From NCBI GenBank assembly GCA_012523575.1, contig JAAYIF010000052.1, positions 14,635 through 78,634 on the forward strand: a DNA stretch of 64,000 nt, read 5' to 3'. Both the position numbers and the translations under genes were made by a program. Shown piece by piece: positions 5,198-63,125 of the stretch (position 1 is the first letter of the stretch; each line of letters begins with the position of its first letter). The DNA comes from Clostridia bacterium (GTDB lineage Bacteria; Bacillota; DTU086). Below the pieces are notes generated by a model, which worked only from the letters and a program-made list of their open reading frames with translations, was not told the origin of the DNA and searched no databases.

Positions 5198-6697
<1,500 letters not shown>

Positions 6698-6784
6698 AAG
6701 CGTGATAATTATTAAGTTTTATAAGGGCAGATTTTTTATTGGGATAAATTATAAATACCCAACTCCCATTTGTCAACAAAAATT

Positions 6785-7609
6785 TTATGGTTCACCGATA
6801 ACTTCGTTAAGGCTGCCTGTGCGGTATCCATCCAGGTCCAGGGCAACGTAATTAAATCCGCAGGCCTTAACCTCCCGGGAAATCCGACGCAGCAGTTCCG
6901 GTTTCAATATCCCGGCCATCTCCTCGGGGGCAATTTCGATTCTGGCCACAGTCCCGTGGTATCTCACCCTCACGTTTTTAAAGCCCAGGTCAGCCAGCCT
7001 CTCTTCCGCCCGGTCAACCATTTCCAGTTTTTCCAGGGATAAGGGTTCCCCATAGGGAATCCTGGTGGCCAGGCAGGGTCTGGCGGGGCGGTTCCAGTTT
7101 TCCAAACCAAGAAACTTGGCTATTTGTCGCACATCATCTTTTTCTATACCGCAGTCAAGCAGAGGACTTCTAACCATTTCAAAGCTCCGGACAGCCTCAA
7201 GGCCGGGGCGGTAATCCCCGGTGTCCGAGCTGTTGGACCCCTCCAGCACATACCTGTAGCCTTCACGGCGGGCCACTTCCGTCAGCAGCTCAAAGGAACG
7301 CCGCTTGCAGTGGTAACAGCGTTGGGGGGTGTTTGCCACAATCTGCGCATCCTGCAGTTCATTGGTCTCAATGATTCGGTGAGGCACTTGCAATTCCCGG
7401 GCAATCCTTTGGGCGTCTTCCAGATCCCCGTGGGGTATGAGGGGAGAACGCAACGTCACGGCCAGAATGTTCCGTTTCCCAAGGCAGTCGGCGGAAACCT
7501 TTAGCACAAGGGAGCTGTCCACCCCGCCGGAAAAGGCAACCATAACCCTTTCCAGCTGTTTAATATAAAGGGAAAGGTTTGCTAGCTTTTCCTCCAGTTG
7601 TTTATCCAT
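6785..7609 (-). CDS. LarE-like PP-loop ATPase / sulfur transferase (TIGR00268 family)
   Basis: 274 aa. PP-loop SGGVDSS. Strong overall similarity to LarE, including the conserved Cys in 'PCLATRIPYG' (equivalent to the LarE catalytic Cys). Additional CxxC (RCYHCK). Confidence 0.8.
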   Translation of the reverse strand: MDKQLEEKLANLSLYIKQLERVMVAFSGGVDSSLVLKVSADCLGKRNILAVTLRSPLIPHGDLEDAQRIARELQVPHRIIETNELQDAQIVANTPQRCYHCKRRSFELLTEVARREGYRYVLEGSNSSDTGDYRPGLEAVRSFEMVRSPLLDCGIEKDDVRQIAKFLGLENWNRPARPCLATRIPYGEPLSLEKLEMVDRAEERLADLGFKNVRVRYHGTVARIEIAPEEMAGILKPELLRRISREVKACGFNYVALDLDGYRTGSLNEVIGEP

Positions 7610-7659
7610 ACAAAAACACCCTTTTCAATTGCCTTTCCTTACGCTTCTCTAAATACTTC

Positions 7660-8589
7660 TCATTCCTCTACCTGAAAAAGTTCGGTGCTCAAATAGCGCT
7701 CCCCGGAATCCGGAAGAATCACAACGATCACTTTACCGCTGCTCTCGGGCCTTTTCGCCACCTGCTGTGCAGCGTAAGCCGCCGCTCCCGCAGAGATCCC
7801 CACCAGTAGACCCAGTGTCCGGGCTAGAAGCCTGCTGGTATTGAAGGCATCCTCAGCGGAAACCGGGATAACCTCATCCACCAGTGACAGATTGAGAACT
7901 TCGGGAACAAAACCGGCGCCAATTCCCTGAATCTTATGTGGGCCCGGCTTGCCTCCTGACAATACCGGAGAGTCAGAGGGTTCCACAGCAATGATCTTCA
8001 AGGTGTCCTTGCGCTTCTTTAGTTCCTCGGCGATACCCGTAATGGTTCCCCCGGTGCCAACACCGCCAACTATGATGTCCACCTTGCCATCCGTATCATC
8101 CCAAATTTCCTGGGCCGTGGTAGCCCGGTGGGCAGCGGGGTTGGACGGGTTTTCGAACTGCTGGGGAATAAAGGAATTGGGTATCTCTTTAGCCAGTTCT
8201 TCAGCCTTTTCCACAGCACCCTTCATCCCTTCAGAGCCCGGCGTTAATACCAGCTCGGCACCGTAAGCCTGGAGGAGTTTGCGGCGCTCTATGCTCATGG
8301 TTTCCGGCATGGTCAATATCAGGCGGTATCCCCTGGCGGCGCAAACAAAGGCCAGGGCAATCCCTGTGTTTCCACTGGTGGGCTCAATGATGACGGTGTC
8401 TTTATTGATAAGCCCCTTTTCCTCAGCATCCCTGATCATGGCATAGCCGATCCTGTCTTTCACACTGCCGGCAGGATTGAAGTACTCCAGTTTCCCGAGG
8501 ACTTCAGCATCCGTCCCCTGGGCTAGAGGTTTTAAACGCAGCAGAGGAGTCCCCCCGATCAGTTCCGTAAGGTTATCATAAACCCGCAT
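7660..8589 (-). CDS. cysK: Cysteine synthase (O-acetylserine sulfhydrylase)
   Basis: 309 aa. PLP-binding motifs [10 protein letters not shown] and [10 protein letters not shown]. Confidence 0.9.
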
Positions 8590-10769: not shown

Positions 10770-11891
10770 TCATTTTACGAATCCATATTTATTTTTTAAA
10801 TACTCTTTTCTGATATCATCTATGCTTTTTAATTTACCGTTACGAATAACGTACCAATAGTTATAACCATTAACCCTTTTAGCTCTGCCCCCTTTAGCTT
10901 TTGCTGCGCAAGAATGCATATCCATTTCTTCTCCCCTAAAAACAAGTTTTCCGTTAGCTTTCAGTCTAGCCTCCGCTGATTTATTCTTTAGAAAAAAGCT
11001 TTCTCCTTCAATGAAATAACCGTCTTGTATCATTTGTTGCATAGTTACCTTTGGAGGCTTTTCATCAAATTTTGCTTTTTCTATATCTCCTATGTGAGTG
11101 ACAGTTGATGCTAATCTTTTTTCTCCGTATTCACAATATTTTTTGTCTTTTTCAATCATAATATAGTTTCTTCCCATTCTTTTTGCGACTACACCCGTTG
11201 TCATGGTTCCAGCAAATGGATCTAAAACAAGATCTCCAACTTTTGAAGATATGGCAATAATTCTGTAAAGAAGTTCTTCCGGTTTCTGTGTGCTATGAAG
11301 TTTTTCTCCTTTATCATCTTTTAATCTCTCATTACCCTGACAAATACCTATTCTCCAAACAGAACCTAACTGCTTTCTAACACCATTTCTGTATTCTTCC
11401 TCGCTTACAGTATCCTTATTGAGTTCTTTTGCGGTTTTATAATTGAAGGTAAACTTTGATTTTTGCGACTTTGTTGCCCATATCAAGGTTTCATGACTGT
11501 TGTTTAATCTTACTCCTCTAAAGTTAGGGGTTGGATTTTTTTTATACCATATAACATCGTTAATAAGCCAAAAACCTATTCTTTGCATTATTGCTCCAAT
11601 GGTATATATACATTGCATACCTCCTATTACCCAGATAGAGCCATCCTTTTTCAAAACTCTTTTACATTCGCTGAGCCATTTTTCTGTAAAATTTTCATAA
11701 TCCTCTAATGTTGTAAACTGATTGTCCCACTCGTCAACGCAACCATCAAACTCTGTTCCTTCCACTCTATGCAAAACTCCTTCAACTCTCATCCAATAAG
11801 GAGGATCTGCGAAAATTAGATCAACACTGTCATCTGGTATTTTTTTTAATTCCACCAAAGCATCTCCATTAATAACTACATTTTTTTCCAT
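10770..11891 (-). CDS. N6-adenine DNA methyltransferase, beta class, CcrM/M.HinfI family (predicted GANTC); orphan
   Basis: 373 aa. Motif IV DLIFADPPY precedes motif I LDPFAGTMTTG. Near-colinear similarity to CcrM (KRVLKDDG(S/T)(I/L)WVIG…WxLNDIxWxKxNPxPNFxG…HETLIWA…HxTQKPE(E/A)LLYR…LDPFxGxGTTG…) including a C-terminal extension. No adjacent restriction endonuclease. Confidence 0.85.
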   Translation of the reverse strand: MEKNVVINGDALVELKKIPDDSVDLIFADPPYWMRVEGVLHRVEGTEFDGCVDEWDNQFTTLEDYENFTEKWLSECKRVLKKDGSIWVIGGMQCIYTIGAIMQRIGFWLINDVIWYKKNPTPNFRGVRLNNSHETLIWATKSQKSKFTFNYKTAKELNKDTVSEEEYRNGVRKQLGSVWRIGICQGNERLKDDKGEKLHSTQKPEELLYRIIAISSKVGDLVLDPFAGTMTTGVVAKRMGRNYIMIEKDKKYCEYGEKRLASTVTHIGDIEKAKFDEKPPKVTMQQMIQDGYFIEGESFFLKNKSAEARLKANGKLVFRGEEMDMHSCAAKAKGGRAKRVNGYNYWYVIRNGKLKSIDDIRKEYLKNKYGFVK

Positions 11892-12168
11892 ATAATATAT
11901 CTCTCTCCTTCTCTTGCTTTTCTAATAAGGTCTATTAAATTTTAATAGCAGAAACCGCCACCATAAATTTCTGTGAATTCTAGACATCTTTTGATGTTTA
12001 CAATCCTCCGCCGGGAAAGCCACTCTTTCATGGGTGGAATGAAGAGGTGGAGGATCGTAAACTGATCATGTAACGTCCCATCTCGTTTGTTGGTTTTGAC
12101 AACTACAAACATACGGAAAAAACGTGACTACGGGAAGGGCTTTTTTTGGCTCTTCCCATAGTTTTTGA

Positions 12169-12206
12169 TTTTTGCCACGAAATTTTATTTTTGCCACGAA
12201 ATTTTA
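12169..12206. repeat. Perfect 19-bp tandem direct repeat (TTTTTGCCACGAAATTTTA x2)
   Basis: Two identical adjacent copies at 12169-12187 and 12188-12206, between the livF terminator and the methyltransferase gene. Confidence 0.9.
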
Positions 12207-12221
12207 CTTAAAGAAATTCAT

Positions 12222-12290
12222 AAAAAAAACCGTCGAACCCCAAGGTTTTTGCTATACCTGAGGTCGACGACATTATTTGCAATCCAATTT
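12222..12290 (-). terminator. Terminator of the liv operon
   Basis: Minus-strand imperfect hairpin (CGTCGACC…GGTTCGACGG) followed by TTTTTTTT, immediately after the livF stop. Confidence 0.5.
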
Positions 12291-12311
12291 CGATTCAAAG
12301 GGCAACTGCTG

Positions 12312-13064
12312 CTAAATAGCTGAGGCCTGTCTTTTCTTACCCAAATATGCAGCCTTAACTTCTTCGTTCTCCAGCAGTTCCTTCCCTGTTCCGCTCAAAA
12401 CTATTTTCCCCGTTTCCAATACGTAACCCCAATCCGCTATGTGCAGGGCAGCATTGGCATTCTGTTCTATAAGCAGTATGGTTACTCCGTTGTTGTAGAT
12501 TTGCTGAATAATGGAAAATATGCTTTTAACAATTAACGGTGCCAGTCCAAGGGAAGGTTCGTCCATCATCAGAATCTTTGGTCGGGACATCAGGGCTCTT
12601 CCCACCGCCAGCATTTGCTGTTCTCCTCCGGACAAGGTTCCCGCCAGCTGCCACGACCGTTCCTTAAGTCTGGGGAATAGCTCGTATACCCACGCCAGGT
12701 CTTTTTTTATTTGCTCTTTATTGTTTCTCAAATACGCCCCGATCAGCAGGTTTTCGTAAACCGTCAGGTTTGGAAAAACCCGGCGCCCTTCAGGTACCAG
12801 AGTAATTCCCCTGGCAACGATCTCCGAGGTTTTTAACCCGGTGATGTCTTCTCCCTGGTAGGTTATTTTCCCTGATTTTACCTTCACTAATCCCATAATG
12901 GAACGAAGGGTGGTGGATTTCCCAGCCCCGTTAGCTCCAATCAAAGTGACAATGCTGCCCTCGGGCACCTCAATGGTTATCCCCTTAAGGGCTTCAATAC
13001 CGCCATAGCTCACCGTAAGGTTTTCAACTTTAAGCACCTTCTTCCACCCCCAGATAGGCCTCAA
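12312..13064 (-). CDS. livF: Branched-chain amino acid ABC transporter ATP-binding protein LivF
   Basis: 250 aa. Walker A GANGAGKST, signature LSGGEQQ. Last gene of livJHMGF. Confidence 0.9.
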   Translation of the reverse strand: MRPIWGWKKVLKVENLTVSYGGIEALKGITIEVPEGSIVTLIGANGAGKSTTLRSIMGLVKVKSGKITYQGEDITGLKTSEIVARGITLVPEGRRVFPNLTVYENLLIGAYLRNNKEQIKKDLAWVYELFPRLKERSWQLAGTLSGGEQQMLAVGRALMSRPKILMMDEPSLGLAPLIVKSIFSIIQQIYNNGVTILLIEQNANAALHIADWGYVLETGKIVLSGTGKELLENEEVKAAYLGKKRQASAI

Positions 13065-13815
13065 TAACCTTTGGATCGTTTTGAACTTCTTCGGCGGTTC
13101 CTTTGGCTATGGTTTCACCAAAGTCTAGAACGTATATCCGCTGGGAAATCTCCATCACCAGATCCATGTGGTGCTCTATCAACAGCACCGTGAGATCGTA
13201 TTTATCCTTAATCTCTCTGATAAAGTGTGTCAGCTCTTCCGTTTCCTTTGGGTTCATCCCCGCCGCGGGTTCGTCCAGAAGGAGGAGTTTGGGTTCCGTG
13301 GCAAGGGCCCGAGCAATTTCCAGTCTCCTCTGAACTCCGTAGGGCAGGGAAGAAGCCTGATCATCTTGGTATCTGGACAAACCAAATTCTTCGATGAGCC
13401 TGTGGACCTTTTCCCGCATTCTTTTTTCTTCGGCTCTATACTTGGGAAATCTTAATGCAGCACCGGCAAAATTGGACTGCAGGCGAAGGTGACAAGCAAT
13501 CATAATGTTCTCCCATACGGAAAGTTTTTTAAAGAGCCTGATGTTTTGAAAGGTTCTGGCCACACCCATTCTGGTAATCTGGTCAGGTTTAAGTCCCGTA
13601 ATGTCCTTTCCATCGTAAATAACTTTGCCCTTGGTGGGAGCATAGACCCCCGTAATTATGTTAAAGGCGGTGGTTTTCCCTGCTCCGTTGGGTCCGATGA
13701 GGGCCACAATTTCCCCTTTATTTACCTCTATGGAAAGATTGTTAACAGCGGTAAGTCCCCCAAACTTTATGGTAACTTCCTGGGTCTCAAGCAGAGGGTT
13801 TGAGTTTGTTGTCAT
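13030..13815 (-). CDS. livG: Branched-chain amino acid ABC transporter ATP-binding protein LivG
   Basis: 261 aa. Walker A GPNGAGKTT. LivG-type insertion. Confidence 0.9.
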   Translation of the reverse strand: MTTNSNPLLETQEVTIKFGGLTAVNNLSIEVNKGEIVALIGPNGAGKTTAFNIITGVYAPTKGKVIYDGKDITGLKPDQITRMGVARTFQNIRLFKKLSVWENIMIACHLRLQSNFAGAALRFPKYRAEEKRMREKVHRLIEEFGLSRYQDDQASSLPYGVQRRLEIARALATEPKLLLLDEPAAGMNPKETEELTHFIREIKDKYDLTVLLIEHHMDLVMEISQRIYVLDFGETIAKGTAEEVQNDPKVIEAYLGVEEGA

Positions 13816-14885
13816 TGCACTTCACCACTCTTTACACGACGCAGTTTAAAGCGTTTGCCGAAGTTTTTTATCATTTCCCAATTTATTTCCCTGGTTCCCA
13901 TTAAACCGTCACGGTAGAACAGAACAATGATCATCAGGAGCAGGGAAAAGATAACCATTCTGAACCCGGGCCTGAACAACGGGATGGCAATGCCTCCTAT
14001 GGACAGCGGTTCGTCCAGGAAGCGAAGCCACTCCTGCCCGGCGGTGACGACGTAAGCGGAAATGATGGTGCCGGAAACACTTCCCATTCCGCCCAAGACA
14101 ATAATGAGCAGGAAGTTGTAGGTTAGTACAAACAGGAAGTTTTTGGGGTCCACGGTACCCAGCAAAGCTGCATAAAGTCCCCCTCCAATGCCTGCAAAGA
14201 AAGCGCCTATCATAAAGGACATCATTTTATGTTTGAAGAGATTTATACCCATTGCTTCGGCGGCAATTTCATCTTCCCTTATGGCCTTAAAGGCTCTGCC
14301 GTAGCTGGAATTGATGAGCAGCACAATAAAAGCAATGGAAATGATCATGGTAATATAAATCCACCAGATATTTGCCACCGGGGGAATGTTTTTAATACCC
14401 AGTGACCCGTTGGTTATGCTCTGGGCATTGGTAATAACAATTCGAATAATTTCTGAAAAGCCCAATGTAGCAATGGCCAGGTAGTCGTCCCTTAACCTCA
14501 GAACCGGTGCACCGATTAAAAAGGCAATAAAAGCGGATAAAAGCCCCCCTAAAATTAGGGCCACTATAAAGGGCATTTCAATGTCCGCAATAGCTGGATG
14601 CATGGGTTTCATGAAATACACCATGGGCCTGATCTCCACGGGAACGGTAAAAATACCCACCATGTAAGCCCCAATGGCCATAAACCCCGCATGGCCCAGG
14701 GAAAACAATCCCGTAAAACCGTTAATGAGGTTCATGGACAGGGCCAAGATGGTGTAGATGGCACACAGGTTAAGCACCCGCTGGACGTACAGGTTAAAAA
14801 ACTTGTCAGCAACTGCAATAAAAACAAAAAGTCCTGCAATGAGAATTATGGAAAGTATTTTATCTTCCTTTTTCATACTGGTCAC
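13812..14885 (-). CDS. livM: Branched-chain amino acid ABC transporter permease LivM
   Basis: 357 aa, polytopic. Overlaps livH/livG by 4 nt. Confidence 0.85.
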   Translation of the reverse strand: MTSMKKEDKILSIILIAGLFVFIAVADKFFNLYVQRVLNLCAIYTILALSMNLINGFTGLFSLGHAGFMAIGAYMVGIFTVPVEIRPMVYFMKPMHPAIADIEMPFIVALILGGLLSAFIAFLIGAPVLRLRDDYLAIATLGFSEIIRIVITNAQSITNGSLGIKNIPPVANIWWIYITMIISIAFIVLLINSSYGRAFKAIREDEIAAEAMGINLFKHKMMSFMIGAFFAGIGGGLYAALLGTVDPKNFLFVLTYNFLLIIVLGGMGSVSGTIISAYVVTAGQEWLRFLDEPLSIGGIAIPLFRPGFRMVIFSLLLMIIVLFYRDGLMGTREINWEMIKNFGKRFKLRRVKSGEVQ

Positions 14886-22226: not shown

Positions 22227-22361
22227 ACGCCCGCCTCCCAACTGCATTATAAATAAATGACCGCCTGGTCATTTTTTCACCAAAAGAAATTATAACACCC
22301 TTTGGATAAACTATCCAGTAAAAAATTACATAAAAAAATAAAGGCAGCAATTTCTGCTGCC

Positions 22362-23891
22362 CTACTGCTGCCACGTTATTACACCCCTTCGGCTGCCAGC
22401 ATCCCAGTGAACGGAAAATCCTTGGACGTGGGACAACAGGCGAAGGGGAATAAAAACCCTACCGTTTACAATCCTGGGTCCTACCGCCGGTTTAATCTCC
22501 TTTGCGTCAACTCCTTCAATCCTTACAGTACCCTTTCTAAGCTCCATATAAATTTTTTGTCCACCCAGGCCCAGCACCGCTTCCTTTTTCTGGGGATCCC
22601 AATTCATGGTTCCCCCAAAGGCTTCAGCGATAAGCCGCGCCGGCACCATTATGTTTCCCTGGGAAATAAAAATTCCTCCTCCGTAAGCCACAAGCCTTCC
22701 GTTTAAGTAAGTGGCACCCACATCGGGTAGAACTATGAGACTGCTTCCATAAGTCCTCGAGCCCTGCCCTCGACTCAGCAGTATGGCTTCCGCCGCTTTC
22801 AGCTGGAGCTCGGGATCCATTATGACGTAATGGGGGCTTACCCCTATGCCGTCTATCCTCCTTCCCATGGAAGAAAGGTATTCCCCGGTGGTTATTTTAA
22901 GGACTGCCCCGGGTTCGCTGTCCAAAGGCATTACGGTCTGCACCGTCCCTTTGCCAAAGGTGGTGGTCCCCACCAAAATGCCGGCATGGTTTTCTTTAAC
23001 GGCGGCGGCCACAATTTCCGAAGCGCTTGCGCTTCCGTGGTCCACCAGCACCACCAGGGGCAGGGTGTTAACCAAAGGCCTTTTTGCCCATACCCTTACC
23101 GTTTCACTGCTGTTTCTCACATAGGTTATTGTTCTGCCCTGGGGAAGAAAGAGCTCCGCAACTTCCAGGGCAGAGGTAAGGTAGCCTCCGGGATTGTTCC
23201 TGAGATCAAGGATTATGCCTCTAGCACCCTGAGCCTTTAATTCCCTTAAAGCCTTTTCCGTTTTTTCTCCCACGTCGGAAGAGAAAGTGGTGATCCTGAT
23301 GTATCCCACCCCGCTGTCCAAAAGTTCATACTCCACAGTTTCCAGTACAATGTTTCTTCTGGTCAGGGTAACGTTAAAGCCCGTGTCTTCCCTAAGAACG
23401 GTAAGGGTGACTTTTGTGCCCGGCTCACCTCTTACCATGCCGGCAACACTGTCAATGCTTTTTCCATAGGTGCTTATGCCGTTAACAGCGGTGATTATAT
23501 CTCCCGGTTTAAGTCCCACGGCCTCCGCGGGGCTTCCCTTAAACACACTTATTATCACCACTGCGCCGTCTTTTACGCCCAGCTCCATTCCCACACCGCC
23601 GTAGGATCCATTGGTGTCATCCATGAATTCCCGGTATTCTTCGGGAGAAAAATACTGCGTATAGGGGTCCCCCAGTACTTCAATTAATTGTTCAACGTCC
23701 CCGGAGCTGTACAGAATCCATTCGCTTACGGGGTGATAATAGTAACTGCGTATTATGCTCCGCACTTCCTGAAGAAGTTGGTTATTATAGGCTGCTTCCG
23801 CAAAGGAGCAGATTGCAAAAATGAAAAGCAGTGCCAGCACCAAAGCGGCAGTAGCTGGCCTAAGGACATTCCTGGATATCCTTTTCCCCAT
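22362..23891 (-). CDS. S41 C-terminal processing peptidase with PDZ domain and C-terminal copper-amine-oxidase-N ('stalk') domain
   Basis: 509 aa. Signal peptide. PDZ region (GLKPGDIITAVNG). S41 catalytic region (…GSASASEI…TFGKG). C-terminal CuAO-N-like domain. Confidence 0.8.
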   Translation of the reverse strand: MGKRISRNVLRPATAALVLALLFIFAICSFAEAAYNNQLLQEVRSIIRSYYYHPVSEWILYSSGDVEQLIEVLGDPYTQYFSPEEYREFMDDTNGSYGGVGMELGVKDGAVVIISVFKGSPAEAVGLKPGDIITAVNGISTYGKSIDSVAGMVRGEPGTKVTLTVLREDTGFNVTLTRRNIVLETVEYELLDSGVGYIRITTFSSDVGEKTEKALRELKAQGARGIILDLRNNPGGYLTSALEVAELFLPQGRTITYVRNSSETVRVWAKRPLVNTLPLVVLVDHGSASASEIVAAAVKENHAGILVGTTTFGKGTVQTVMPLDSEPGAVLKITTGEYLSSMGRRIDGIGVSPHYVIMDPELQLKAAEAILLSRGQGSRTYGSSLIVLPDVGATYLNGRLVAYGGGIFISQGNIMVPARLIAEAFGGTMNWDPQKKEAVLGLGGQKIYMELRKGTVRIEGVDAKEIKPAVGPRIVNGRVFIPLRLLSHVQGFSVHWDAGSRRGVITWQQ

Positions 23892-28101: not shown

Positions 28102-28770
28102 TTGAAATTTACGGATGAAGCCCGGAAAAAGGCTGCTCCTATTTGGGACGCACAATTCAGCCATCCCTTCGTAAAGGGCATAGGGGACGGAAGCCTAGAC
28201 ATGGAAAAGTTTAAATACTGGGTCAGGCAGGATTACGTCTACCTGAAGAACTACTCAAGGGTCTTTGCCCTGGGGGCTGCCAAAGCCAAGGATCTGAAAA
28301 CCATGGGTACCTTTGCCAAGCTTCTGGACGGGACCCTGAATATGGAGATGGAGCTCCACCGGAATTATGCTGCAAAGTTTGGCATATCCGAAGAAGAGCT
28401 GGAAAATGAAACCCCAGCTCCTACCACCCAAGCTTACACTGACTATCTGGTGGTCTGTTCCTACAGCGGAGATCTGGCAGAGCTCATAGCGGCGCTGCTA
28501 CCCTGTGCATGGGGATTCTGGGAAATTGGAAAGTACCTTAAGGAGCACGGGGATACGTCGGAGAAAAACCCCTACAGAGACTGGATAGAGATGTATTCAT
28601 CCAAGGAATTTGAAGAATTATGCCTCTGGTGTATGGAGCTCATGGACAGGGAAGCAGAGCTGTGCCCGCCCCATAAAAAGGAGATTCTCCTGGATATTTT
28701 CATTACCAGCAGTAAGTATGAGTATATGTTCTGGGAAATGGCTTACAATCTTGAAAAGTGGCCGGTGTAA
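28102..28770 (+). CDS. tenA: Thiaminase II / aminopyrimidine aminohydrolase TenA
   Basis: 222 aa, TTG start with GGAGGTG RBS. TenA/THI-4 family signature (FVKGIGDGSLDMEKFKYWVRQDYVYL…). Confidence 0.8.
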   Translation: MKFTDEARKKAAPIWDAQFSHPFVKGIGDGSLDMEKFKYWVRQDYVYLKNYSRVFALGAAKAKDLKTMGTFAKLLDGTLNMEMELHRNYAAKFGISEEELENETPAPTTQAYTDYLVVCSYSGDLAELIAALLPCAWGFWEIGKYLKEHGDTSEKNPYRDWIEMYSSKEFEELCLWCMELMDREAELCPPHKKEILLDIFITSSKYEYMFWEMAYNLEKWPV

Positions 28771-28796
28771 AACGCCAATACTTAAAAAAGACACAA

Positions 28797-28840
28797 AGCC
28801 CTGTACTGAAGACAGTGCAGGGCTTATTTTTTTCAAAGGG
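28797..28840. terminator. Bidirectional terminator after tenA
   Basis: AGCCCTGTACTG-AAGA-CAGTGCAGGGCT with a T-run on the plus side and TTGTGTCTTTTTT on the minus side. Confidence 0.65.
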
Positions 28841-28867
28841 TCTCTGCTGCAGTTTTCTCTACTTGCG

Positions 28868-29035
28868 AACTCACGCCGGACGTCTCTAAGCAAAGCGTAA
28901 TGGGCAAAACCGGGCCGCCCCAAATTCGGCGTCCATGCCTCAGGTTGGGGGCTGGCGCGAACGTCCATGCTCGCGCCCCCCGGTTTTGCCTTACGCTTTG
29001 CCAGAGCTGTTAGCCGGCGTTCGTTAAGTCGTTTC
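28868..29035. other. GC-rich ~170-nt long imperfect inverted repeat (candidate structured ncRNA or MITE-like element)
   Basis: Arms …ACGCCGG…GCAAAGCGTAATGGGCAAAACCGGG… and …CCCGGTTTTGCCTTACGCTTTGC…CCGGCGT… pair over ~55 nt around a ~50-nt core that carries its own hairpin GGCGCGA-ACGTCCATGC-TCGCGCC. GC-rich in an AT-moderate intergenic region. The overlapping ORFs are judged spurious. Confidence 0.4.
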
Positions 29036-29184
29036 GCAAACCGCAGCAGACACCTATTGATATTTAAGAAGTTAACTTGTCTACAGGCCAGGCTTGTCCT
29101 GGAATCAGCACAGGGTTTTTCTTTGCACTATTTTGGAAATCCTTAAAAAATTTTTCATAATTATTTTTAAGCCCTCTACAGGAA

Positions 29185-29213
29185 TTGACAAAGGACAAAT
29201 ATAACTTATTAAT
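29185..29213 (+). promoter_or_regulatory. Putative promoter of the PBP1 gene
   Basis: TTGACA-17 nt-ATTAAT. Confidence 0.3.
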
Positions 29214-29265
29214 TTGAACATTTTTCAAAAAAATGATTCCGCTGGAATAACGGGAGGGAAAGCCC

Positions 29266-31983
29266 GTGCGCAACCGGAACAGCGGTGAAAGAGCAAAAAC
29301 CCCGGGGGTTAAAAAATACATAGCCCCGTTAATTATTTTTTTCCTTATTGCCGCCGTGGCACTGATGGGATTCGCAGCGAATATATTAAAAGACTTGCCC
29401 GAAATTTCCGAGGACAGCCTTAAACCGGAGATTCTCACCACCTTTATCTATGACAAAGACGGAAACAGAGTAACGGATCTCCACGGGATTCATAAATGCG
29501 TGCCCGTAAAACTTAAGGACGTTCCGGAGGAACTTATAAATGCCGTTATAGCCGTGGAAGACAGGGACTTCTTTAAGCATAGAGAGAACACCTGGACCTT
29601 AATTAAGGCCTTCCTATCCCCTTTAAAGGGAGAAAAAAGCCTTCAGGACAAAAACGGCATTACTATGCAGCTGGTGGAAAATATTTTTCATCCTGGGGAA
29701 AACAGTAAGGATTACAGGGAAAAAATCAAAAAAACATACCTGGCCTTGAAAATGGAGCAGAAATTCTCAAAGGAAGAAATCCTTGAGGCTTATCTCAACC
29801 AAATTTATTTCGGTCACGGCGCCTATGGAGTCCAGGCCGCTGCCCAAACCTATTTCGGTAAGGGCGTTGGAGACCTTACCCTGGGAGAATGCGCCCTCAT
29901 TGCCGGTATCGCTGACAATCCCGAGGCTTATTCACCCTTTAACAATCCGGAGGCAGCGAAAAAACGCAGGGATACGGTGCTGAACAGTATGGCGGAAGAG
30001 GGATATATTGGCCGGGAAGAAGCTGAAAAAACGGCAAGTGAGCCATTAAATCTCATTCACCCCGAAGAAAATGAATCCCATAAATATCCTTATTTTATTG
30101 ACGCCGTGGTTCAGGAAACCCAGGAGCTTTTGAAACAAGCGGGCCTGGATCATACGGAGATTTACCGTAAAGGATATAGAATCTACACCACCCTGGACCC
30201 TTCAGTTCAGGAAAAGATGCAGGACATATATAGTAACAGAAGGAAGTTCCCACCGGGTTCGGGAGGCGGTACCGTGGAAAGCACCATGGTGGTGCTGGAT
30301 CATCGCACTGGAGAAATAAGGGGGCTGGTGGGAGGAAGAAGCTACAGCAGCGGAAGCAGTTTCAACAGATCCCTTGAAGCCAAAAGACAACCGGGAACCA
30401 TATTAACTCCTTTTATTGTATACGCCCCTGCCCTTGAGATGGGCTATTCCCCGGCCTATGTAGTGGATGATGCGCCGGTGGTCTATAAAGCGCCGGACGG
30501 CTCCGTATATCGTCCCCAAAACAAAGACGGAAAATTTCGGGGCCTTATAACCATGAGGGAAGCCATGAGTCTTTCCCTCAATGTTCCTGCGGTTAAGTTA
30601 TTAAATGAAGTGGGTGTGGAAAAGGGAACAGACTTTGCGAAAAAAATGGGATTCTCGATTGCAACGGAAAACGAAGATTTAAAAGCTGCCCTGGGGGAAA
30701 CCGGCGGGAAAACAACCCTAATGAACCTTGCCGTCGCCTATGGCGCTTCCGCCAACGGCGGAGTTATAGTTGAGCCCCATACAATTACAAAAATAACTGA
30801 CTACCAGGGAAAGGTTATCGTTAAAGTTACCCCCAAAAAGAAAAGGGTAATGAGCCCCCAAACGGCTTATCTCCTTACCCACATGCTGAAAACGTCTCTG
30901 GGGGCCCAGGAGGGAAGAGCTCAAACTATCAAAGGCAATGCCGCAGCGGGTTACAGCGGACAAGCCCCTCTCCCAGATCTTAAAGAATTTAAAGGTCTTA
31001 GGGGCTATCAGGACCAGTGGTTTGTGGGGTTTACCCCAAAGCTGCTGGGTGCGGTGTGGTTGGGATACGATCAAACCTCCCCCAAGCAGTATTTGAAGGA
31101 TGATTATAGCAGGCTCTGCTTTTCCCTTTGGGAAGAAGTAATGGAAGAAGCCCATAGGGAAATGGGACCCGGGGACTTTATTCCACCCGATGGGATAACC
31201 GAGGTGCTGGTGGACAAAAAATCCGGCAAACTGCCTAGCAGGATCACGCCCAAGAATTATATAATAAAGGAGCTTTTTAGAGAGGACAAAGTGCCCGGGG
31301 AAGTTTCCGATGTTTGGATCGAAAAGGAAATCTGTACGGAAACCGGGCTTCTGGCTTCCCAGTTCTGCCCTGAAACAACTAAAGAAGTATTCCTCAAAAG
31401 GCCCGAAGTTTCAGGGAACGTAAAGCCCCTTGATGCAGCCCTGGAAGCACCAAAGGAAGTATGTTTCCTCCACACTACAACGGGAAGCTATATCACAGTA
31501 AACGTCTGTACGGACCCCGCACACAAGGGCAAATATTATCTTGCAAACATCCCTGTGGAAGGTTATTTGGGAGGATGTCCCTCCAAATATATTAAGAAGA
31601 TGAATTTCCCGGCGGGAAAGGAGCCCAGGGAGTACTGCCCCATACCGGCTCATCAGCTTAAATTGGACACGGGAAACAACTCAGGAACAGTACCCCCCAC
31701 GCCCATACTGAAAGGCTCCGTTTCCAGGGGAGAAGGGGGTAAGCCCTTGGTGCGCCTTCAGTGGAAAGTGCCCGATAATTCGGGAACCATACTTTACTCC
31801 ATAGAAAGGTGGACACCCCTTTACCCCATAAGGTTTGAAATTGCCATAACGTCCAAAAATATATGGACGGACGTTTATGTAAAACCGGGGAATACTTACT
31901 ATTACCGAGTGGTAGCCGTGGACGTTTACTCCAATTTAAAATCCCCGTCAAACCGCATTGAAGTTTCAGTTCCGGCAAATTAA
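29266..31983 (+). CDS. Class A penicillin-binding protein (PBP1A/1B: glycosyltransferase + transpeptidase) with C-terminal FN3-like domain
   Basis: 905 aa, GTG start. N-terminal TM. GT51 motifs (…AVIAVEDRDFFKH…). Transpeptidase SxxK/SxN-type regions. C-terminal beta-rich domain. Confidence 0.9.
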   Translation: MRNRNSGERAKTPGVKKYIAPLIIFFLIAAVALMGFAANILKDLPEISEDSLKPEILTTFIYDKDGNRVTDLHGIHKCVPVKLKDVPEELINAVIAVEDRDFFKHRENTWTLIKAFLSPLKGEKSLQDKNGITMQLVENIFHPGENSKDYREKIKKTYLALKMEQKFSKEEILEAYLNQIYFGHGAYGVQAAAQTYFGKGVGDLTLGECALIAGIADNPEAYSPFNNPEAAKKRRDTVLNSMAEEGYIGREEAEKTASEPLNLIHPEENESHKYPYFIDAVVQETQELLKQAGLDHTEIYRKGYRIYTTLDPSVQEKMQDIYSNRRKFPPGSGGGTVESTMVVLDHRTGEIRGLVGGRSYSSGSSFNRSLEAKRQPGTILTPFIVYAPALEMGYSPAYVVDDAPVVYKAPDGSVYRPQNKDGKFRGLITMREAMSLSLNVPAVKLLNEVGVEKGTDFAKKMGFSIATENEDLKAALGETGGKTTLMNLAVAYGASANGGVIVEPHTITKITDYQGKVIVKVTPKKKRVMSPQTAYLLTHMLKTSLGAQEGRAQTIKGNAAAGYSGQAPLPDLKEFKGLRGYQDQWFVGFTPKLLGAVWLGYDQTSPKQYLKDDYSRLCFSLWEEVMEEAHREMGPGDFIPPDGITEVLVDKKSGKLPSRITPKNYIIKELFREDKVPGEVSDVWIEKEICTETGLLASQFCPETTKEVFLKRPEVSGNVKPLDAALEAPKEVCFLHTTTGSYITVNVCTDPAHKGKYYLANIPVEGYLGGCPSKYIKKMNFPAGKEPREYCPIPAHQLKLDTGNNSGTVPPTPILKGSVSRGEGGKPLVRLQWKVPDNSGTILYSIERWTPLYPIRFEIAITSKNIWTDVYVKPGNTYYYRVVAVDVYSNLKSPSNRIEVSVPAN

Positions 31984-31987: not shown

Positions 31988-32015
31988 GGGAGCTTTGGTC
32001 AAGCTCCCTTTTTTG
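31988..32015 (+). terminator. Terminator after the PBP gene (overlaps 3' end of the convergent gene)
   Basis: GGGAGCTT-TGGTCA-AGCTCCC followed by TTTTTTG. Confidence 0.6.
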
Positions 32016-35415: not shown

Positions 35416-35537
35416 AGGCCCAGGAGCCTCCCTCGTAAGGGAGGCTTCGACATGTTAATGATAAAAAAATAGGTAAAGGTCTATTAAGTTAATAGTTTGT
35501 ATGGTATAATCTTCAAAAAAGGAAAGGGGTTTTGTCC

Positions 35538-35702
35538 ATGAGTAAATGGGAATGTACAATCTGCGGCTACATTTACGATCCCGAAGTTGGGGATCCTGAT
35601 AACGGAATTGAGCCCGGTACTGCCTTTGAAGACCTTCCCGATGATTGGGTTTGCCCTTTATGCAAAGTTGACAAAGGAAACTTTGTGGAACTTTCAGAAT
35701 AA
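35538..35702 (+). CDS. rd: Rubredoxin (54 aa)
   Basis: [54 protein letters not shown]. Classic CxxCG…CPxCG rubredoxin. Not in the ORF track (<60 aa). Followed by hairpin AGCCTCCCTTTTGAGGGAGGCTTT. Confidence 0.9.
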
Positions 35703-35828
35703 CCTCTTAATATAGACAAGCCAAACCCCTGAAGCCTCCCTTTTGAGGGAGGCTTTCAGCTTTTAGACAAAGGCTATCTACTACGGTTTGCCAACAACTT
35801 AATAAGCGTCGGGACATTTTGGCAAAGC

Positions 35829-36239
35829 CTAACTGCAGATTTCCTTAATGAAGACAACTATTTCTTCCGCCCATGAAACGGCTTGTTCTGCCGTTTCTGC
35901 CTCGACGAATTGATCGTCTTCGCTCTCAAAGTACTTCCCTTCCTCTGGAGAAATGTAATATTTATCAAGGTTCCTTGCGTATTCTTTTAATTTTAAGGAA
36001 AATTCAATTCCTTCTTTTCCGGCCCTGGTGATAAGCTGAAGGAGATAGGGTTCATTGCAACCATATATACCCATTCCCCTAAGCAGACCCTTTAATGCAT
36101 ATTCTGCAGCCCTTCTGGATTTATAATAGCTCCAGACATAAAAACTTTTAATTCTGTCATTTTCAGCCAATCTCAGCATTTCTTCCGCACTGCTCATCCA
36201 GCGGTCATATACATCCCTTTTAACTAAAGATATTTTCAA
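35829..36239 (-). CDS. HEPN domain protein (solitary; no adjacent nucleotidyltransferase partner)
   Basis: Start reassigned to TTG at 36239 (GGGGAGGG RBS 7 nt upstream). HEPN-like helices (…SSAEEMLRLAENDRI…RRAAEYALKGLL…). Confidence 0.6.
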   Translation of the reverse strand: MKISLVKRDVYDRWMSSAEEMLRLAENDRIKSFYVWSYYKSRRAAEYALKGLLRGMGIYGCNEPYLLQLITRAGKEGIEFSLKLKEYARNLDKYYISPEEGKYFESEDDQFVEAETAEQAVSWAEEIVVFIKEICS

Positions 36240-43908: not shown

Positions 43909-44145
43909 CATGGTCACATTCTTTGCAATATGAAAACTATAAATAAGGAGAATTTATTATGAGGACTGCGCTCCTTCATGAAGCGCTTTATCACATATTA
44001 CATTAGTATTCTACACACCCTTTCAAATTCCTTTTATCAACCAAATTTTTCATAAGTTTTTCCTTAATGTTTTGCTTATAGATGTCTGGTATGGGTTTCG
44101 GAGTAAGAAAACTGCAGCAGAAACCCTTTGTCAACAAACTGAAAA

Positions 44146-51023: not shown

Positions 51024-51890
51024 TTATTTTTCCTTTAAAAGCTCGCCAATGGCCTTTGCCCTTTCCGGGCTGATATGCCCCTTTTCCCGGGACAGTTTTA
51101 AAGTTTCCAGGCCTAAAATCCGGTATGCTTCTAGATACTGGGGCAATTTATCCTCCAAGACCCTCAGATGCGCCTCCACCGTTTCAGCATCACCCCGGGC
51201 AATGGGTCCCGTCAGAGCCGCCGGGGGTTTAAGATGCTTCAAATTTTCAAGGGTTCCTTCCATTAAAGGTATGAGGGCCTGGGTAAGAAGGGATTCATCA
51301 ATTCCTGCGGCTAACAGCATTTGGGACCCCATGGAGAATAAAGACACAAGATAATTGGAAACCACACATAAAGCGGCATGATAAAGGGCCTTGTCCTCCC
51401 TGCTTATAATAAAATATCTGCCCCCTATTGCCTCTACAATCCTTTTACCCACTTCGATGCCTTCCTTATCCCCTTCAAGGCTGAAAACAGCCCGGGACAG
51501 GTTTTTTACCCCCTGCTCCACATCGGCACAGGACTGAAGGGGATGTATGGACAGCAAAAAGGCTCCATGATCCCGGGCCGGGGAAAGAACATCGGCCCCC
51601 AAGGAACCGCTCATGTGGGCCACCACCTGGCCTTTAAAAAAGGCACCTTTTTCCGCCAATTTTTCTGCGGTTTCCCCTATGGCGGAATCAGGGGTGGTTA
51701 TAAACAATAGCGGGCACTTTGAGGCCAGCTCTGCGGGATCCTCGTACCGTCTGGAGCCCGTAGCCTTTGCAGCCCTTTTGGCAGATTCAAGACTCCTGCT
51801 ACAGTAGCCTTCTATCTCAAAACCCTTTTCCTTTATAAGCTTTCCCATGGCCGTACCCACGACCCCTGCTCCGATAAATCCCGCGCGCAT
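51024..51890 (-). CDS. Rossmann-fold oxidoreductase with DUF2520 domain (putative ketopantoate reductase-type)
   Basis: 288 aa. GFIGAGVVG dinucleotide motif. C-terminal DUF2520-like domain. Adjacent to panCD. Confidence 0.65.
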   Translation of the reverse strand: MRAGFIGAGVVGTAMGKLIKEKGFEIEGYCSRSLESAKRAAKATGSRRYEDPAELASKCPLLFITTPDSAIGETAEKLAEKGAFFKGQVVAHMSGSLGADVLSPARDHGAFLLSIHPLQSCADVEQGVKNLSRAVFSLEGDKEGIEVGKRIVEAIGGRYFIISREDKALYHAALCVVSNYLVSLFSMGSQMLLAAGIDESLLTQALIPLMEGTLENLKHLKPPAALTGPIARGDAETVEAHLRVLEDKLPQYLEAYRILGLETLKLSREKGHISPERAKAIGELLKEK

Positions 51891-52071
51891 ATTAAACCCT
51901 CCATAAAAATTAAGCCTTCCGGACCAAAGGGTACGGAAGGCATAGCATCGACAGACCGTCTAACCTCCGTCTCGGTCCTCACAGGATCCAAGCGGAAAAA
52001 AATAGGATATTTAAATGTTAACACAGGAACGGTCCCCTGTCCATAAAAGCTCCTTTATATTTCACTCACTT

Positions 52072-52614
52072 TTATACCGGAGATTCCTTATAAAAAACAA
52101 CATCCTCCTGAGAAGGATTTAGCCTTTTAAGAATCTCCCTGAGAAGGATACCGTCGGGAAGACGGCAGTCGGGATAAATTTCAAGAAGGGGAATGAGCAC
52201 AAAGGCCCTCTCCTTAAGTCTGGGATGGGGAATTTCCAGCTCCTTTGTTTTAACGATTTCATTATCAAAAAGCAGGATATCCAGATCTATTTCCCTGGGG
52301 CCAAAGCGCACCCCGGGCTTCCTTCCCATTTCCTTCTCTATGGTTTTAAGTTCCTTTAACAGCTCGTAGGGCTGTAAGAAAGTTTTAATTTTTGCCACCA
52401 TATTAAGGAAAAGGGGCTGCCCCAGGGGGCCTCCCACAGGTTTGGTTTCGTAAATTGACGATGTGCTTTCCAAAGCAATTTTTTCATGGGCTCCAAGTTT
52501 TCTTAAAGCATCCCTAAGGTTTTTTTCCCTGTCTCCAAGGTTTGTTCCTAGACCCAAAAAGACCTCGTGCACCATTGACTTTTCATCCCCATTATTCACA
52601 TACACTATTATCAT
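52072..52614 (-). CDS. folK: 2-amino-4-hydroxy-6-hydroxymethyldihydropteridine diphosphokinase
   Basis: HPPK motifs (…FLGLGTNLGDR…GPREIDLDIL…). True start may be the internal MVHEVFLG. Confidence 0.85.
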   Translation of the reverse strand: MIIVYVNNGDEKSMVHEVFLGLGTNLGDREKNLRDALRKLGAHEKIALESTSSIYETKPVGGPLGQPLFLNMVAKIKTFLQPYELLKELKTIEKEMGRKPGVRFGPREIDLDILLFDNEIVKTKELEIPHPRLKERAFVLIPLLEIYPDCRLPDGILLREILKRLNPSQEDVVFYKESPV

Positions 52615-52988
52615 TAACTATCCTTTAAGTCCCCATACATCACAGCCCTAACCTCCGCATAATCCATGTGCCCCCCTACGGGAGCATTGGGTTTGCGAAC
52701 TCTAACCTCCGCTCTCTCCACGGGAAAATCCTCAACGATCCTTTCCGCTAAAGTGCAGGCAAGAGTTTCAATGAGATTATATCTTTTAGAATTAAAAACC
52801 TCCACAACAGTCCCGTAAATTTGGGAGTAGTCCACCGTTTCTTCCAAAGAATCCTTAATAATCCCCTTATCCCAGGTTAAGCTCACTTCCACATCAATTT
52901 CAAAAACCTGCCCTCTTTCCCTTTCGTGGGGCAGGACACCGTGGAAGCCATACAGCCTTATTCCTTTAAGGGTGATCCTACCATCCAT
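52614..52988 (-). CDS. folB: Dihydroneopterin aldolase
   Basis: Start set at MDGRITLKGIRLYGFHGV. FolB signature. Confidence 0.85.
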   Translation of the reverse strand: MDGRITLKGIRLYGFHGVLPHERERGQVFEIDVEVSLTWDKGIIKDSLEETVDYSQIYGTVVEVFNSKRYNLIETLACTLAERIVEDFPVERAEVRVRKPNAPVGGHMDYAEVRAVMYGDLKDS

Positions 52989-54177
52989 GGGCCTCACCCT
53001 TTCCCAGCAAGGCATCGGTCATCCGGACCACCCTAACCATTTCTTTTACATCATGCACCCTTACAATATCCGCTCCCCGGAGGATTCCCACGGTAACAGC
53101 GGCGGCGGTACCCTCCAGCCGCTCCTCCGGAGGAAGTTTCAGGACATTTCCTATTACCGATTTCCTGGACACCCCCAGGAGAATGGGCTGACCCAGCACC
53201 TTCAGGACATCAAGCCCATTTATCACCTCCAGATTCTGACGGGTATTCTTGGCAAAGCCTATACCGGGGTCCAGGATTATGTTTTCCCTTTTTACTCCTT
53301 TCTCTTCAGCAAGCTCCCTTTTCTTCCTTAAGGTCCTTATTACACCTTCAAGAATACTTTCTGTATTTTCCGGGACACCGTGCATAATGATTATGGGTGC
53401 GCCATATTTTGCCACTGTCTCTGCCATGTGGGGATCCGCCAGGCCGGAAACGTCGTTGATTATATGGGTTCCCCTTTCCAGGGCGAGGCGGGCCACTCTG
53501 CTTTTGTACGTATCAACGGAAATGGGAACCTTAACCTTATCCACCAGCTTTTCCAAAACAGGCATAAGCCTTGAAATTTCCTCCTCTTCGGATACGGGCT
53601 CAAATCCGGGGCGGGTTGATTCAGCCCCCACATCAATAATGTCAGCCCCCTGCTCTTCCATTTCCAGCGCCCTTTCAAGGGCAGCATCGGGGTTATTATA
53701 AAGGCCACCGTCAGAGAAGGAATCCGGGGTTACATTCAATATGCCCATTACGAGGGTTTTTCTTCCTAGCACCAGTTCCTTTCCCCGGCAGGAAATTTTC
53801 CTTACCCTGTTCCCCATAAGGTATTCCAATGCCGTTTCCAGTTCTTCCCCCAGTTCCTTTAACCCAAAGGGCTGCTGTTTCAGCTTTGGGATCAATTTTT
53901 TAAACTGGGCCAGCGTTCCCATAAGCAGGGCATAGGTGGAATCGGCACCGCAGATAACGCTGCCCTTTACAGCGGCTTCTCCGCCCTTGGTAAGCATCTC
54001 CTGCTTTAATATGTTGGCCGCCTGGTGTTTTAACGGCCCCACCTTTAAAGTAAAAAATTTTCCTTTGGGAGCCATTATGGAAATACCACCGGGGCACACA
54101 CCCATTTCTTGCATAATTTTTTCCGCTGTTCCTGGGGCGTCTATAGTAACGGGAAAAATGTCATAGCGCACCGGCAT
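52978..54177 (-). CDS. folP: Dihydropteroate synthase with ~120-aa N-terminal extension of unknown function
   Basis: 399 aa. DHPS core starts at …KTLVMGILNVTPDSFSDGG. The preceding ~120 residues have no DHPS counterpart. Confidence 0.8.
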   Translation of the reverse strand: MPVRYDIFPVTIDAPGTAEKIMQEMGVCPGGISIMAPKGKFFTLKVGPLKHQAANILKQEMLTKGGEAAVKGSVICGADSTYALLMGTLAQFKKLIPKLKQQPFGLKELGEELETALEYLMGNRVRKISCRGKELVLGRKTLVMGILNVTPDSFSDGGLYNNPDAALERALEMEEQGADIIDVGAESTRPGFEPVSEEEEISRLMPVLEKLVDKVKVPISVDTYKSRVARLALERGTHIINDVSGLADPHMAETVAKYGAPIIIMHGVPENTESILEGVIRTLRKKRELAEEKGVKRENIILDPGIGFAKNTRQNLEVINGLDVLKVLGQPILLGVSRKSVIGNVLKLPPEERLEGTAAAVTVGILRGADIVRVHDVKEMVRVVRMTDALLGKGEAHGW

Positions 54178-54184
54178 CCCCTCT

Positions 54185-54535
54185 TTACATTCTGATTTGA
54201 CTGGGCCTTATCTTCTCAACCATGAGGGCCTGCTCCGCCGTAGACAAAATTGCCCTAAAGGAAACTTCTCCCACAATATCCGCTTCCACCACATCCACAT
54301 TAAACCTTCTACCCACAGCCCTAACATGTTCAAGCACCTTAAGGGGAGGAACCTCCTCAACATCCTTTATACCTATTAAAATCCTGGCTTCATGGGCCTT
54401 AAAGGCTTCCCGCACAATTCCCCGGGCCCAAATTTTTTCCTCCCCCCAAAACTTCACCAGCCCTTTGGCAATGTAGCTAGCTTTCCGGGCATCATCGGTG
54501 GAAAGGGTAAGATTGTACCTCATTTCAAAATCCAA
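54185..54535 (-). CDS. Hypothetical protein (116 aa) upstream of folP
   Basis: Coding-like composition, same strand as and adjacent to the fol operon. No family recognised. Confidence 0.4.
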   Translation of the reverse strand: MDFEMRYNLTLSTDDARKASYIAKGLVKFWGEEKIWARGIVREAFKAHEARILIGIKDVEEVPPLKVLEHVRAVGRRFNVDVVEADIVGEVSFRAILSTAEQALMVEKIRPSQIRM

Positions 54536-55124: not shown

Positions 55125-55132
55125 CGCCTCCC

Positions 55133-63050: not shown

Positions 63051-63125
<75 letters not shown>

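Follow-up and report, generated by a model that had tools for sequence, protein, structure and literature searches.

What is the long, GC-rich imperfect hairpin that lies between the tenA gene and a class A penicillin-binding protein (PBP) gene in an uncultured Clostridia bacterium? The locus belongs to a stretch of 64,000 nucleotides (nt) of contig JAAYIF010000052.1 (assembly GCA_012523575.1), here called the window, whose numbering is used throughout. A preliminary description, made from the letters of the sequence, had offered a structured non-coding RNA with a 6S-like architecture or a transposable element of the miniature inverted-repeat type (MITE) as the candidates. The comparisons presented below indicate that the hairpin is a copy of a non-coding, palindromic, MITE-like element of about 263 nt with a core of the TwoAYGGAY type, and that its insertion point is precisely the foot of an intrinsic-terminator hairpin, the whole palindrome of which is duplicated at integration. 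That the element is mobile is very likely, and the fuller statement, that the hairpin is a member of the TwoAYGGAY family and a copy of a mobile repeat element targeting terminators, is likewise probable. The RNA family is a known one, and its mobile behavior is previously unreported.

Dispersed copies and anatomy of the element

A 20-mer from the element, TTTGCGAAACGACTTAACGA, matched 18 metagenome loci, and blastn and nhmmer comparisons recovered 15 full copies and five copies cut by contig ends, all with the same 215-nt core and 82-89% identical to the window copy. The search for further copies that had been proposed at the outset therefore yields about 20 in related uncultured Clostridia, and these dispersed copies with their target-site duplications support the MITE alternative. 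Nine copies are found on seven contigs of a single assembly (LDZR01). A profile of 263 positions made with nhmmer from the 15 related copies delimits the repeat unit in the window: the presence of the hairpin stands, while its length is to be revised from ~170 nt to about 263 nt (28826-29088). The parts of the unit and of its target are the following:

28826-29088, minus strand: whole repeat unit, MITE-like, with a TwoAYGGAY core (nhmmer profile positions 3-261 of 263, E = 1.9e-74)
28841-29055, minus strand: 215-nt core, a long imperfect hairpin with its outermost stem at 29054-29038/28855-28839 (identical blastn boundaries in every copy)
29056-29088, minus strand: 5' terminal inverted repeat and leader, sense CCTGTAGACAAGTTAACTTCTTAAATATCAATAG (aligns with the family consensus CAGACTGTAGACAAACCCTCTTAAGTAAATCTTAGTAG)
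28826-28840, minus strand: truncated 3' end, sense CCCTTTG and then AAAAAAAT, where other copies have CCCTTTGTCAACAAGCTG (alignment of copies and empty site of the relative L206)
28796-28825, plus strand: intrinsic terminator hairpin of tenA, the intact left target copy (terminator scan; present once in the empty site of L206)
29089-29116, plus strand: right-hand duplicate of the tenA terminator hairpin, now decayed, after which comes the original TTTTTCTTTGCAC flank (the L206 alignment resumes at TTTTCTTTGCAC)
44059-44140, plus strand: 3'-terminal remnant of a second copy, with the 3' inverted repeat CCCTTTGTCAACAAACTG, beside a hairpin (nhmmer profile positions 183-263, E = 6.5e-14)

Alignment of the copies together with their flanks revealed a common layout, namely a site-specific hairpin, CAGACTGTAGACAAACCCTCTTAAGTAAATCTTAGTAG, the 215-nt core, CCCTTTGTCAACAAGCTG, the same hairpin once more and a T-run. 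In most copies the ends are marked by terminal inverted repeats of ~15 nt (CAGACTGTAGACAAA ... TTTGTCAACAAGCTG), with CAGACTGTAGACAAA and CAGCTTGTTGACAAA agreeing at 12 of 15 positions. The window copy retains the 5' inverted repeat only; its 3' inverted repeat is replaced by a sense-strand A-run, which on the plus strand is the T-run of the tenA terminator stem, and the plus strand of the truncated 3' end reads ATTTTTTT directly after that stem. Given the decayed duplicate and the missing 3' inverted repeat, the window copy is probably an old insertion that later lost its 3' inverted repeat and is no longer mobile. The outer stem pairs 28839-28855 with 29038-29054, beyond the palindrome delineated earlier, and the 17-nt motif GGTNTCTGCTGCRGTTT found at these two positions has three occurrences in the window as against 0.08 expected.

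The remnant at 44059-44140, which initially appeared as a 32-nt repeat, is 83% identical over 86 nt to the element of L191 (blastn, E = 5.7e-20). A 25-nt match at 44106-44137 had been considered as the target of a small RNA (sRNA) or as a protein operator, and was dropped as it is the 3' end of this truncated second copy. Elsewhere in the window a rubredoxin-like gene (35519-35702) is situated between two occurrences of the same hairpin (35425-35448 and 35731-35754, arms 92% complementary). The CAGCTTTTAGACAAA sequence after the hairpin at 35731-35754 is one mismatch away from the inverted repeat of the element, and the region 35755-35832 is a possible decayed 5' end (~75 nt), seen by eye and in a weak local alignment; nhmmer did not report it at E <= 0.01 and the assignment is uncertain.

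Filled and empty sites and duplication of the target hairpin

Four comparisons of filled and empty sites show the presence or absence of the element at orthologous positions, principally with the help of two syntenic contigs of relatives, L183 (TenA 86% and PBP 74% identical) and L206 (PBP 82% identical), the latter being the closest relative available for the tenA-PBP locus. At the tenA site, the spacer of L206 up to the PBP gene is 203 nt long and has a single terminator, AAAGCCCTGTACTGCAGTCAGTGCAGGGCTTTTCTTTACAC, and no element; in the window, GCAGGGCTT (up to 28825) and TTTTCTTTGCAC (from ~29117) are separated by 292 additional nt. At the site downstream of a gene for an S41 peptidase, L193 and L183 carry the element between the stop codon and the terminator, and the corresponding position of the window (~22342-22362) is empty; positions 7-217 of L183, 3' of the peptidase gene, are 83% identical to window positions 29055-28841. 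At the 54.6-kb site, L196 (88% identical to window 51586-55408) is filled, with the target hairpin flanking the element on both sides, and the window has a single hairpin (54607-54634). Finally, at the 3' end of the PBP gene, L206 has an element directly past the terminator stem, and the window (31988-32008 and then TTTTTT) and L183 are empty.

The tenA-PBP spacer is a hotspot for change. There is no TwoAYGGAY motif in the tenA-PBP spacer of L183, which has a radical-SAM/SPASM gene (6727-8073, minus strand) between tenA and the PBP gene at the position where the window has the element and L206 has nothing.

Direct repeats of 20-31 nt, which fold at -8 to -17.5 kcal/mol, flank nine of the 13 copies. 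Their limits coincide with the ends of a palindrome, and wherever an empty site is available each of them equals the single hairpin of that site. The duplicated hairpin is a different one at every site, and most of the target hairpins stand between an A-tract and a T-tract, with the orientation of the element relative to the neighboring genes being mixed. About 6 kb from its element copy L193 contains a large CRISPR array (10971-13908, RF01315 repeats of 30 nt, more than 40 units); the repeat length is close to that of the duplicated hairpins.

The core matches the TwoAYGGAY RNA family

The window was scanned against Rfam 15, a check proposed in the preliminary description, and RF01731 (TwoAYGGAY RNA) exceeded its gathering score of 43 bits on the minus strand, reaching 67.8 bits from 29026 to 28867 (model positions 1-168; whole-window E = 3.3e-9). 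The candidate structured RNA thus holds only in the form of a member of this curated family. Its elements on the minus strand are:

28867-29026, minus strand: full-model match to RF01731 (67.8 bits against the gathering score of 43)
28954-28977, minus strand: inner hairpin 1, GGCGCGAGC-AUGGAC-GUUCGCGCC, loop at 28968-28963 (from the sequence; aligns to the first AYGGAY hairpin of the model)
28918-28950, minus strand: inner hairpin 2, tip GGC-AUGGAC-GCC (28939-28928), loop at 28937-28932 (from the sequence; aligns to the second AYGGAY hairpin)

The two adjacent hairpins with AUGGAC loops, each closed by a C-G pair, represent the defining feature of the family, and ~60 pairs enclosing both of them form the P1 stem, with the outer stem extending beyond the model. 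All the motifs reported earlier were located, including ACGCCGG/CCGGCGT, the arms GCAAAGCGTAATGGGCAAAACCGGG / CCCGGTTTTGCCTTACGCTTTGC and the inner GGCGCGA...TCGCGCC hairpin, which is inner hairpin 1 of the list above. The reported contrast in composition was likewise recovered (GC 0.60 at 28850-28999 as against 0.32-0.48 in the flanks). Eight related copies also scored above the RF01731 gathering score (48.8-71.4 bits). The minus strand of 28860-29035 folds at -95.2 kcal/mol (z = -8.06), which none of 200 shuffles equaled (mean -63.0, sd 4), and the plus strand at -90.6 kcal/mol (z = -7.39).

Weinberg et al. 2010 (PMC2864571), who recorded TwoAYGGAY in Clostridiales, gamma-Proteobacteria and the human gut, described it as a probable RNA that they judged not to be cis-regulatory, with a closing P1 stem that is often very large, ~24 bp or more (PMC2864571 supplement). 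The window copy agrees with this description in its full-length model match, the two AYGGAY loops, the very long P1, the Clostridia host and the lack of a consistent neighbor gene. It differs in that the published description does not include mobility, whereas here the motif belongs to a repeat unit that has inverted repeats and a terminator hairpin in duplicate; further, the sister copies mostly have shortened loops, A(C/U)AGGA(G/U)G, and several score below the gathering score. Gardner and Eldai proposed from a motif match, with validation pending, that TwoAYGGAY sequesters CsrA (PMC4333381), and no experimental characterization of the family was found in the literature.

Pairing, strand and loops across the copies

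The consensus structure of the 15 copies has 72 pairs, with 96.7% of the cells paired, and sliding the 3' partners by 1-3 columns reduces the standard pairs to 32-44%. Compensatory changes occupy 17 cells, as against a shuffle mean of 6.6, with none of 500 shuffles reaching 17. G-U cells number 67 and A-C cells 16 across the 15 copies, the antisense strand pairs at 92.0% versus 96.7% for the sense strand, and the sense fold is the stabler one in 14 of the 15 copies, by a mean of 17 kcal/mol. This asymmetry and the folding energies favor a minus-strand RNA, which is the simplest reading, and on these patterns it appears moderately likely that selection acts on the minus strand in single-stranded form. 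GGA is invariant in both loops in all 15 copies and the adjacent loop bases vary; most sister copies have A(C/U)AGGA(G/U)G in place of CAUGGAYG, and the canonical form is seen in the window copy and in L199b.

Weighing the alternatives

A number of observations count against the interpretation of the hairpin as a mobile TwoAYGGAY element that is transcribed from its minus strand and binds CsrA. With respect to mobility, the right hairpin of the window copy is ~68% identical by eye to 28796-28825, which is not significant by itself, and the 3' inverted repeat is gone. Neither the window nor any fetched locus contained a transposase or autonomous element bearing these inverted repeats, and an autonomous partner was also absent from the plasmid and phage collections that were searched. 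With respect to an RNA, no convincing sigma-70 promoter was found upstream on the minus strand: TAGACA-15 nt-TATCAA (~29083-29057) comes closest, CTTAGT, which the family consensus has at the -10 position, is poor, and the sole nearby minus-strand promoter hit of the scan is at 29191-29163. Pairs with changes on both sides number seven and are not significant (47 of 500 shuffles reach seven), the G-U asymmetry is also expected from a single-stranded DNA intermediate of the minus strand, and, with copies ~90% identical, the invariant GGA and the modest covariation constitute weak evidence for selection. With respect to CsrA, csrA was not seen in the window and 154 kb of relatives, a sample too small to be informative.

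Against this background the hairpin might instead be a vertically inherited sRNA gene, a two-site CsrA/Rsm decoy with its own promoter and terminator, that does not move. Such a gene would account for the RF01731 score above gathering, for the CAUGGACG loops resembling a CsrA/RsmE site (the hypothesis in PMC4333381), for the window copy having the most canonical loops of the lineage and for the strand asymmetry indicative of RNA. However, the tenA-PBP locus is empty in L206, the same 215-nt sequence recurs at non-orthologous sites with duplicated targets and inverted repeats, nine copies coexist in one assembly, and no promoter was identified. We consider it improbable: as an exclusive reading it is contradicted by the insertion polymorphisms, although a decoy function is compatible with a mobile element. 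The converse proposal is a selfish palindrome acting purely at the level of DNA, whose folded single strand is recognized by a transposase or recombinase, with the hairpin, the GGA loops and the strand asymmetry all serving this recognition and any transcript being incidental. Integron attC sites and the ends of IS200/IS605 offer parallels, mobility is established, a promoter was not found and the insertion orientation is mixed; moreover, folded single-stranded DNA tolerates G-T wobble and hence the asymmetry does not discriminate. Yet the two-hairpin core with CAUGGAYG loops is kept from Clostridia to Pseudomonas despite unrelated outer sequences, and for conservation of this kind a common function as an RNA or in protein binding is an easier explanation than a single transposase. 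In addition, the inverted repeats and target duplication suggest double-stranded cut-and-paste or copy-in, not Y1/HUH enzymes, which produce no duplication. A purely DNA-level palindrome is accordingly unlikely, if less so than the immobile sRNA gene.

The 6S-like RNA suggested at the outset, which would mimic an open promoter and bind RNA polymerase, shares with the hairpin only the general shape of a long irregular hairpin (~170-215 nt) with an extended imperfect helix. It is scarcely credible, as RF00013 has no match at E <= 10 and the center is a junction of two stem-loops in place of a bubble. Furthermore, the element is multi-copy and lacks a copy at the orthologous site of relatives, whereas 6S RNA is single-copy and syntenic, and a relative has a canonical 6S RNA elsewhere (L191 7540-7725, 114.5 bits). 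This 6S RNA is located ~600 nt from an element copy; the window itself has no 6S gene. The source is a metagenome-assembled genome (MAG), which raises the option of an assembly artefact or of a chance GC-rich palindrome, and this has a negligible probability in view of z = -8 versus shuffles, the Rfam E of 3e-9 and the ~20 independent copies in other assemblies from several projects. The mobile, terminator-targeting TwoAYGGAY element hence remains the preferred reading.

A possible path of insertion and expression

On the preferred reading, the window copy entered the tenA terminator, and an enzyme supplied in trans might have cut the two strands at opposite ends of the target palindrome in a staggered fashion. 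The target could possibly be extruded as a cruciform or hairpin, which would bring the ends of the palindrome together, and gap repair would then copy the whole hairpin. A terminator would be left on each side, such that the neighboring genes and the element transcript might each keep one. In a less certain step, the minus strand could be transcribed from a promoter of its own or, at other sites, via read-through. The transcript would fold into a ~100-bp imperfect hairpin displaying two GGA loops ~30 nt apart, to which a dimeric protein that binds GGA, for instance CsrA, might fit.

Certain features of the sites bear on the expression step. In intact copies, the duplicated hairpin downstream together with its T-run could terminate an element transcript. 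For the window copy, the hairpin earlier described as a bidirectional terminator is indeed present at 28796-28825 with a T-run on the plus strand, but its supposed role in ending a minus-strand transcript is weak, the T-run on the minus strand beginning 7 nt past the stem and no terminator being called there by the scan. In L206 the sense strand is parallel to the PBP gene and the T-tract of the PBP hairpin is gone, and judging from this arrangement the motif could be made as the 3' untranslated region (UTR) of the PBP transcript by read-through.

As regards the protein partner, the two GGA loops resemble CsrA/RsmE sites, and the element presents multiple GGA hairpin loops as a CsrA decoy does, with two sites only. 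The likeness to CsrB/RsmZ lies in the display of GGA in hairpin loops, here at two sites ~30 nt apart, and in the CAGGAUG of the sister copies, which is reportedly the repeat motif of CsrB; a CsrA dimer is also said to be able to bridge sites at distances including ~30 nt. The difference from CsrB/RsmZ is that the element has just two sites, located inside a ~100-bp duplex, and is multi-copy and mobile. The invariant GGA fits the published hypothesis of CsrA binding (PMC4333381), and CsrA decoys have been demonstrated only in Gammaproteobacteria (PMC4333381). On the loop sequences CsrA is a possible, though doubtful, partner.

Comparison with MITEs and with integration systems

In terms of size, dispersed copy number, inverted repeats, target duplication and presence or absence among relatives the element behaves as a MITE. 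It is also non-coding and small (~263 nt): the preliminary description had regarded two overlapping open reading frames as spurious, and this impression extends to three, 28618-28968 (minus), 28967-29146 (plus) and 29064-29441 (minus), none with a Pfam match. A composite transposon was considered and rejected, as the two L199 copies flank genes of ordinary kinds, one for a thioredoxin-like DUF255 protein among them, and no transposase. As for a cognate autonomous insertion sequence, the inverted repeats were found only at the ends of the element in the window and 206 loci, and the element has no known parent insertion sequence.

Bacterial MITEs and palindromic repeats such as EFAR resemble the element in being small, non-coding, multi-copy and intergenic, with terminal inverted repeats, a long hairpin and presence or absence between strains. 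EFAR is the nearest precedent known to us: the target in both cases is a stem-loop and not a sequence, EFAR reportedly targeting stem-loops of 24-37 bp. EFAR insertion reportedly deletes most of the target stem-loop, whereas the element here duplicates its target. The target duplication is atypically long and defined by structure, comprising an entire palindrome of 20-31 bp in comparison to the 2-10 bp of typical MITEs. Terminator duplication is not described in the reviews of bacterial MITEs that were consulted; among MITEs, EFAR of Enterococcus faecalis is listed (PMC3733652).

Duplication of a whole palindrome is likewise seen in CRISPR spacer integration by Cas1-Cas2 and in casposon integration, where a sequence of 25-50 bp, often a palindromic one, is duplicated in full when insertion takes place at its border, and off-target integration occurs near inverted repeats capable of forming cruciforms (PMC5137440). 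The likeness is one of mechanism and no more than an analogy: the element has no Cas1-like gene linked to it, its ~263 bp carry inverted repeats of their own, and casposon duplications, in contrast to those here, are fixed at 14-15 bp.

Neighboring genes and other features of the window

The genes on either side of the hairpin are:

28102-28770, plus strand: TenA gene
29266-31983, plus strand: class A PBP gene

The class A PBP is 100% identical to NLO90138.1 (MAG: Clostridia bacterium), and its nearest named relatives, from Moorella, Thermanaeromonas and Calderihabitans, show ~44% identity. That the hairpin serves tenA or the PBP gene as a leader or riboswitch was considered and rejected, as RF01731 alone reaches the Rfam threshold in 28700-29300; in agreement with the initial inspection, no TPP, ydaO or cobalamin model matched in the Rfam scan at E <= 10. 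Other Rfam matches in the window, at 6586-6697, 51963-52043 and 62883-63125 (all minus strand), comprise a SAM riboswitch at 97.1 bits, a pan motif that at 40.6 bits is slightly over its threshold of 36.2, and three tRNAs.

TwoAYGGAY beyond this lineage and implications

Eighteen other members from Clostridia align in the two-hairpin core, with outer arms that are complementary within each member and differ between members. No flanking direct repeats were found for the members from gut Lachnospiraceae and other Clostridia, and for this reason the claim of mobility is not extended to the gut members. One gut Firmicutes contig has two TwoAYGGAY copies. In three gut Lachnospiraceae loci (L093, L150 and L166) the minimum free energy (MFE) structure pairs 138-159 of the 160-178 nt of the 5' arm, which would give palindromes of ~370-410 nt; as MFE folding over-extends, these estimates of hairpin extent were not used.

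In Pseudomonas genomes, among the matches listed, TwoAYGGAY is multi-copy within a genome, and its flanks are conserved over ~200 nt. Among these listed matches (L069, L102, L109, L111, L113, L124, L127 and L180) it is frequently arranged in inverted pairs at distances of 360-950 nt, separated by simple repeats of di- or hexanucleotides, and L124 has four copies in 1.1 kb. In prophage-like Pseudomonas contigs of IMG/VR, the motif (52-59 bits) occurs 0.7-0.9 kb from a C4 antisense RNA (RF01695), as follows:

L003, L004, L006, L016, L023, L032, L034, L036, L037 and L058 (IMG/VR): contigs with TwoAYGGAY near C4 RNA

The sole GenBank match, Pseudomonas phage DVM-2008 (EU982300.1), starts just inside the motif, which places the motif at or outside the end of the deposited prophage. 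A DNA pattern for the family also matched ~35 viral contigs (L001-L062), mostly in a coding stretch, MDEPVKLYDDAMDA, and was set aside there as a false positive; in genomes, the lineage of the window was not among the matches listed for this pattern.

Taken together, these occurrences give a limited indication that repeat behavior may be general in the TwoAYGGAY family. A broader proposition, offered tentatively, is that TwoAYGGAY motifs might generally form the cores of non-autonomous mobile elements of a widespread class and would not be classical sRNA genes. Those of this lineage would then use an integration chemistry not described before, which would recognize structure (the base of a terminator hairpin or cruciform) and not sequence and would duplicate the whole palindrome, as Cas1-Cas2 does with a CRISPR repeat; they would represent a mobile CsrA-binding module if the GGA loops bind CsrA. 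Duplication of the whole palindrome, unusual among bacterial MITEs, points to a safe-haven strategy whereby the interrupted terminator is preserved by the element. In the window itself, the probably old insertion has left undisturbed the promoter region of the PBP gene, a region that L206 conserves. Should CsrA be bound by the GGA loops, decoy sites would be carried into 3' UTRs by the element, with a potential rewiring of post-transcriptional control. Rfam has listed TwoAYGGAY since 2010 without a known function, the CsrA-decoy hypothesis being the sole published idea, and the transposable behavior of a whole lineage of these motifs changes both the interpretation and the annotation of the family, in that copy number and location would reflect transposition and not the regulation of neighboring genes.

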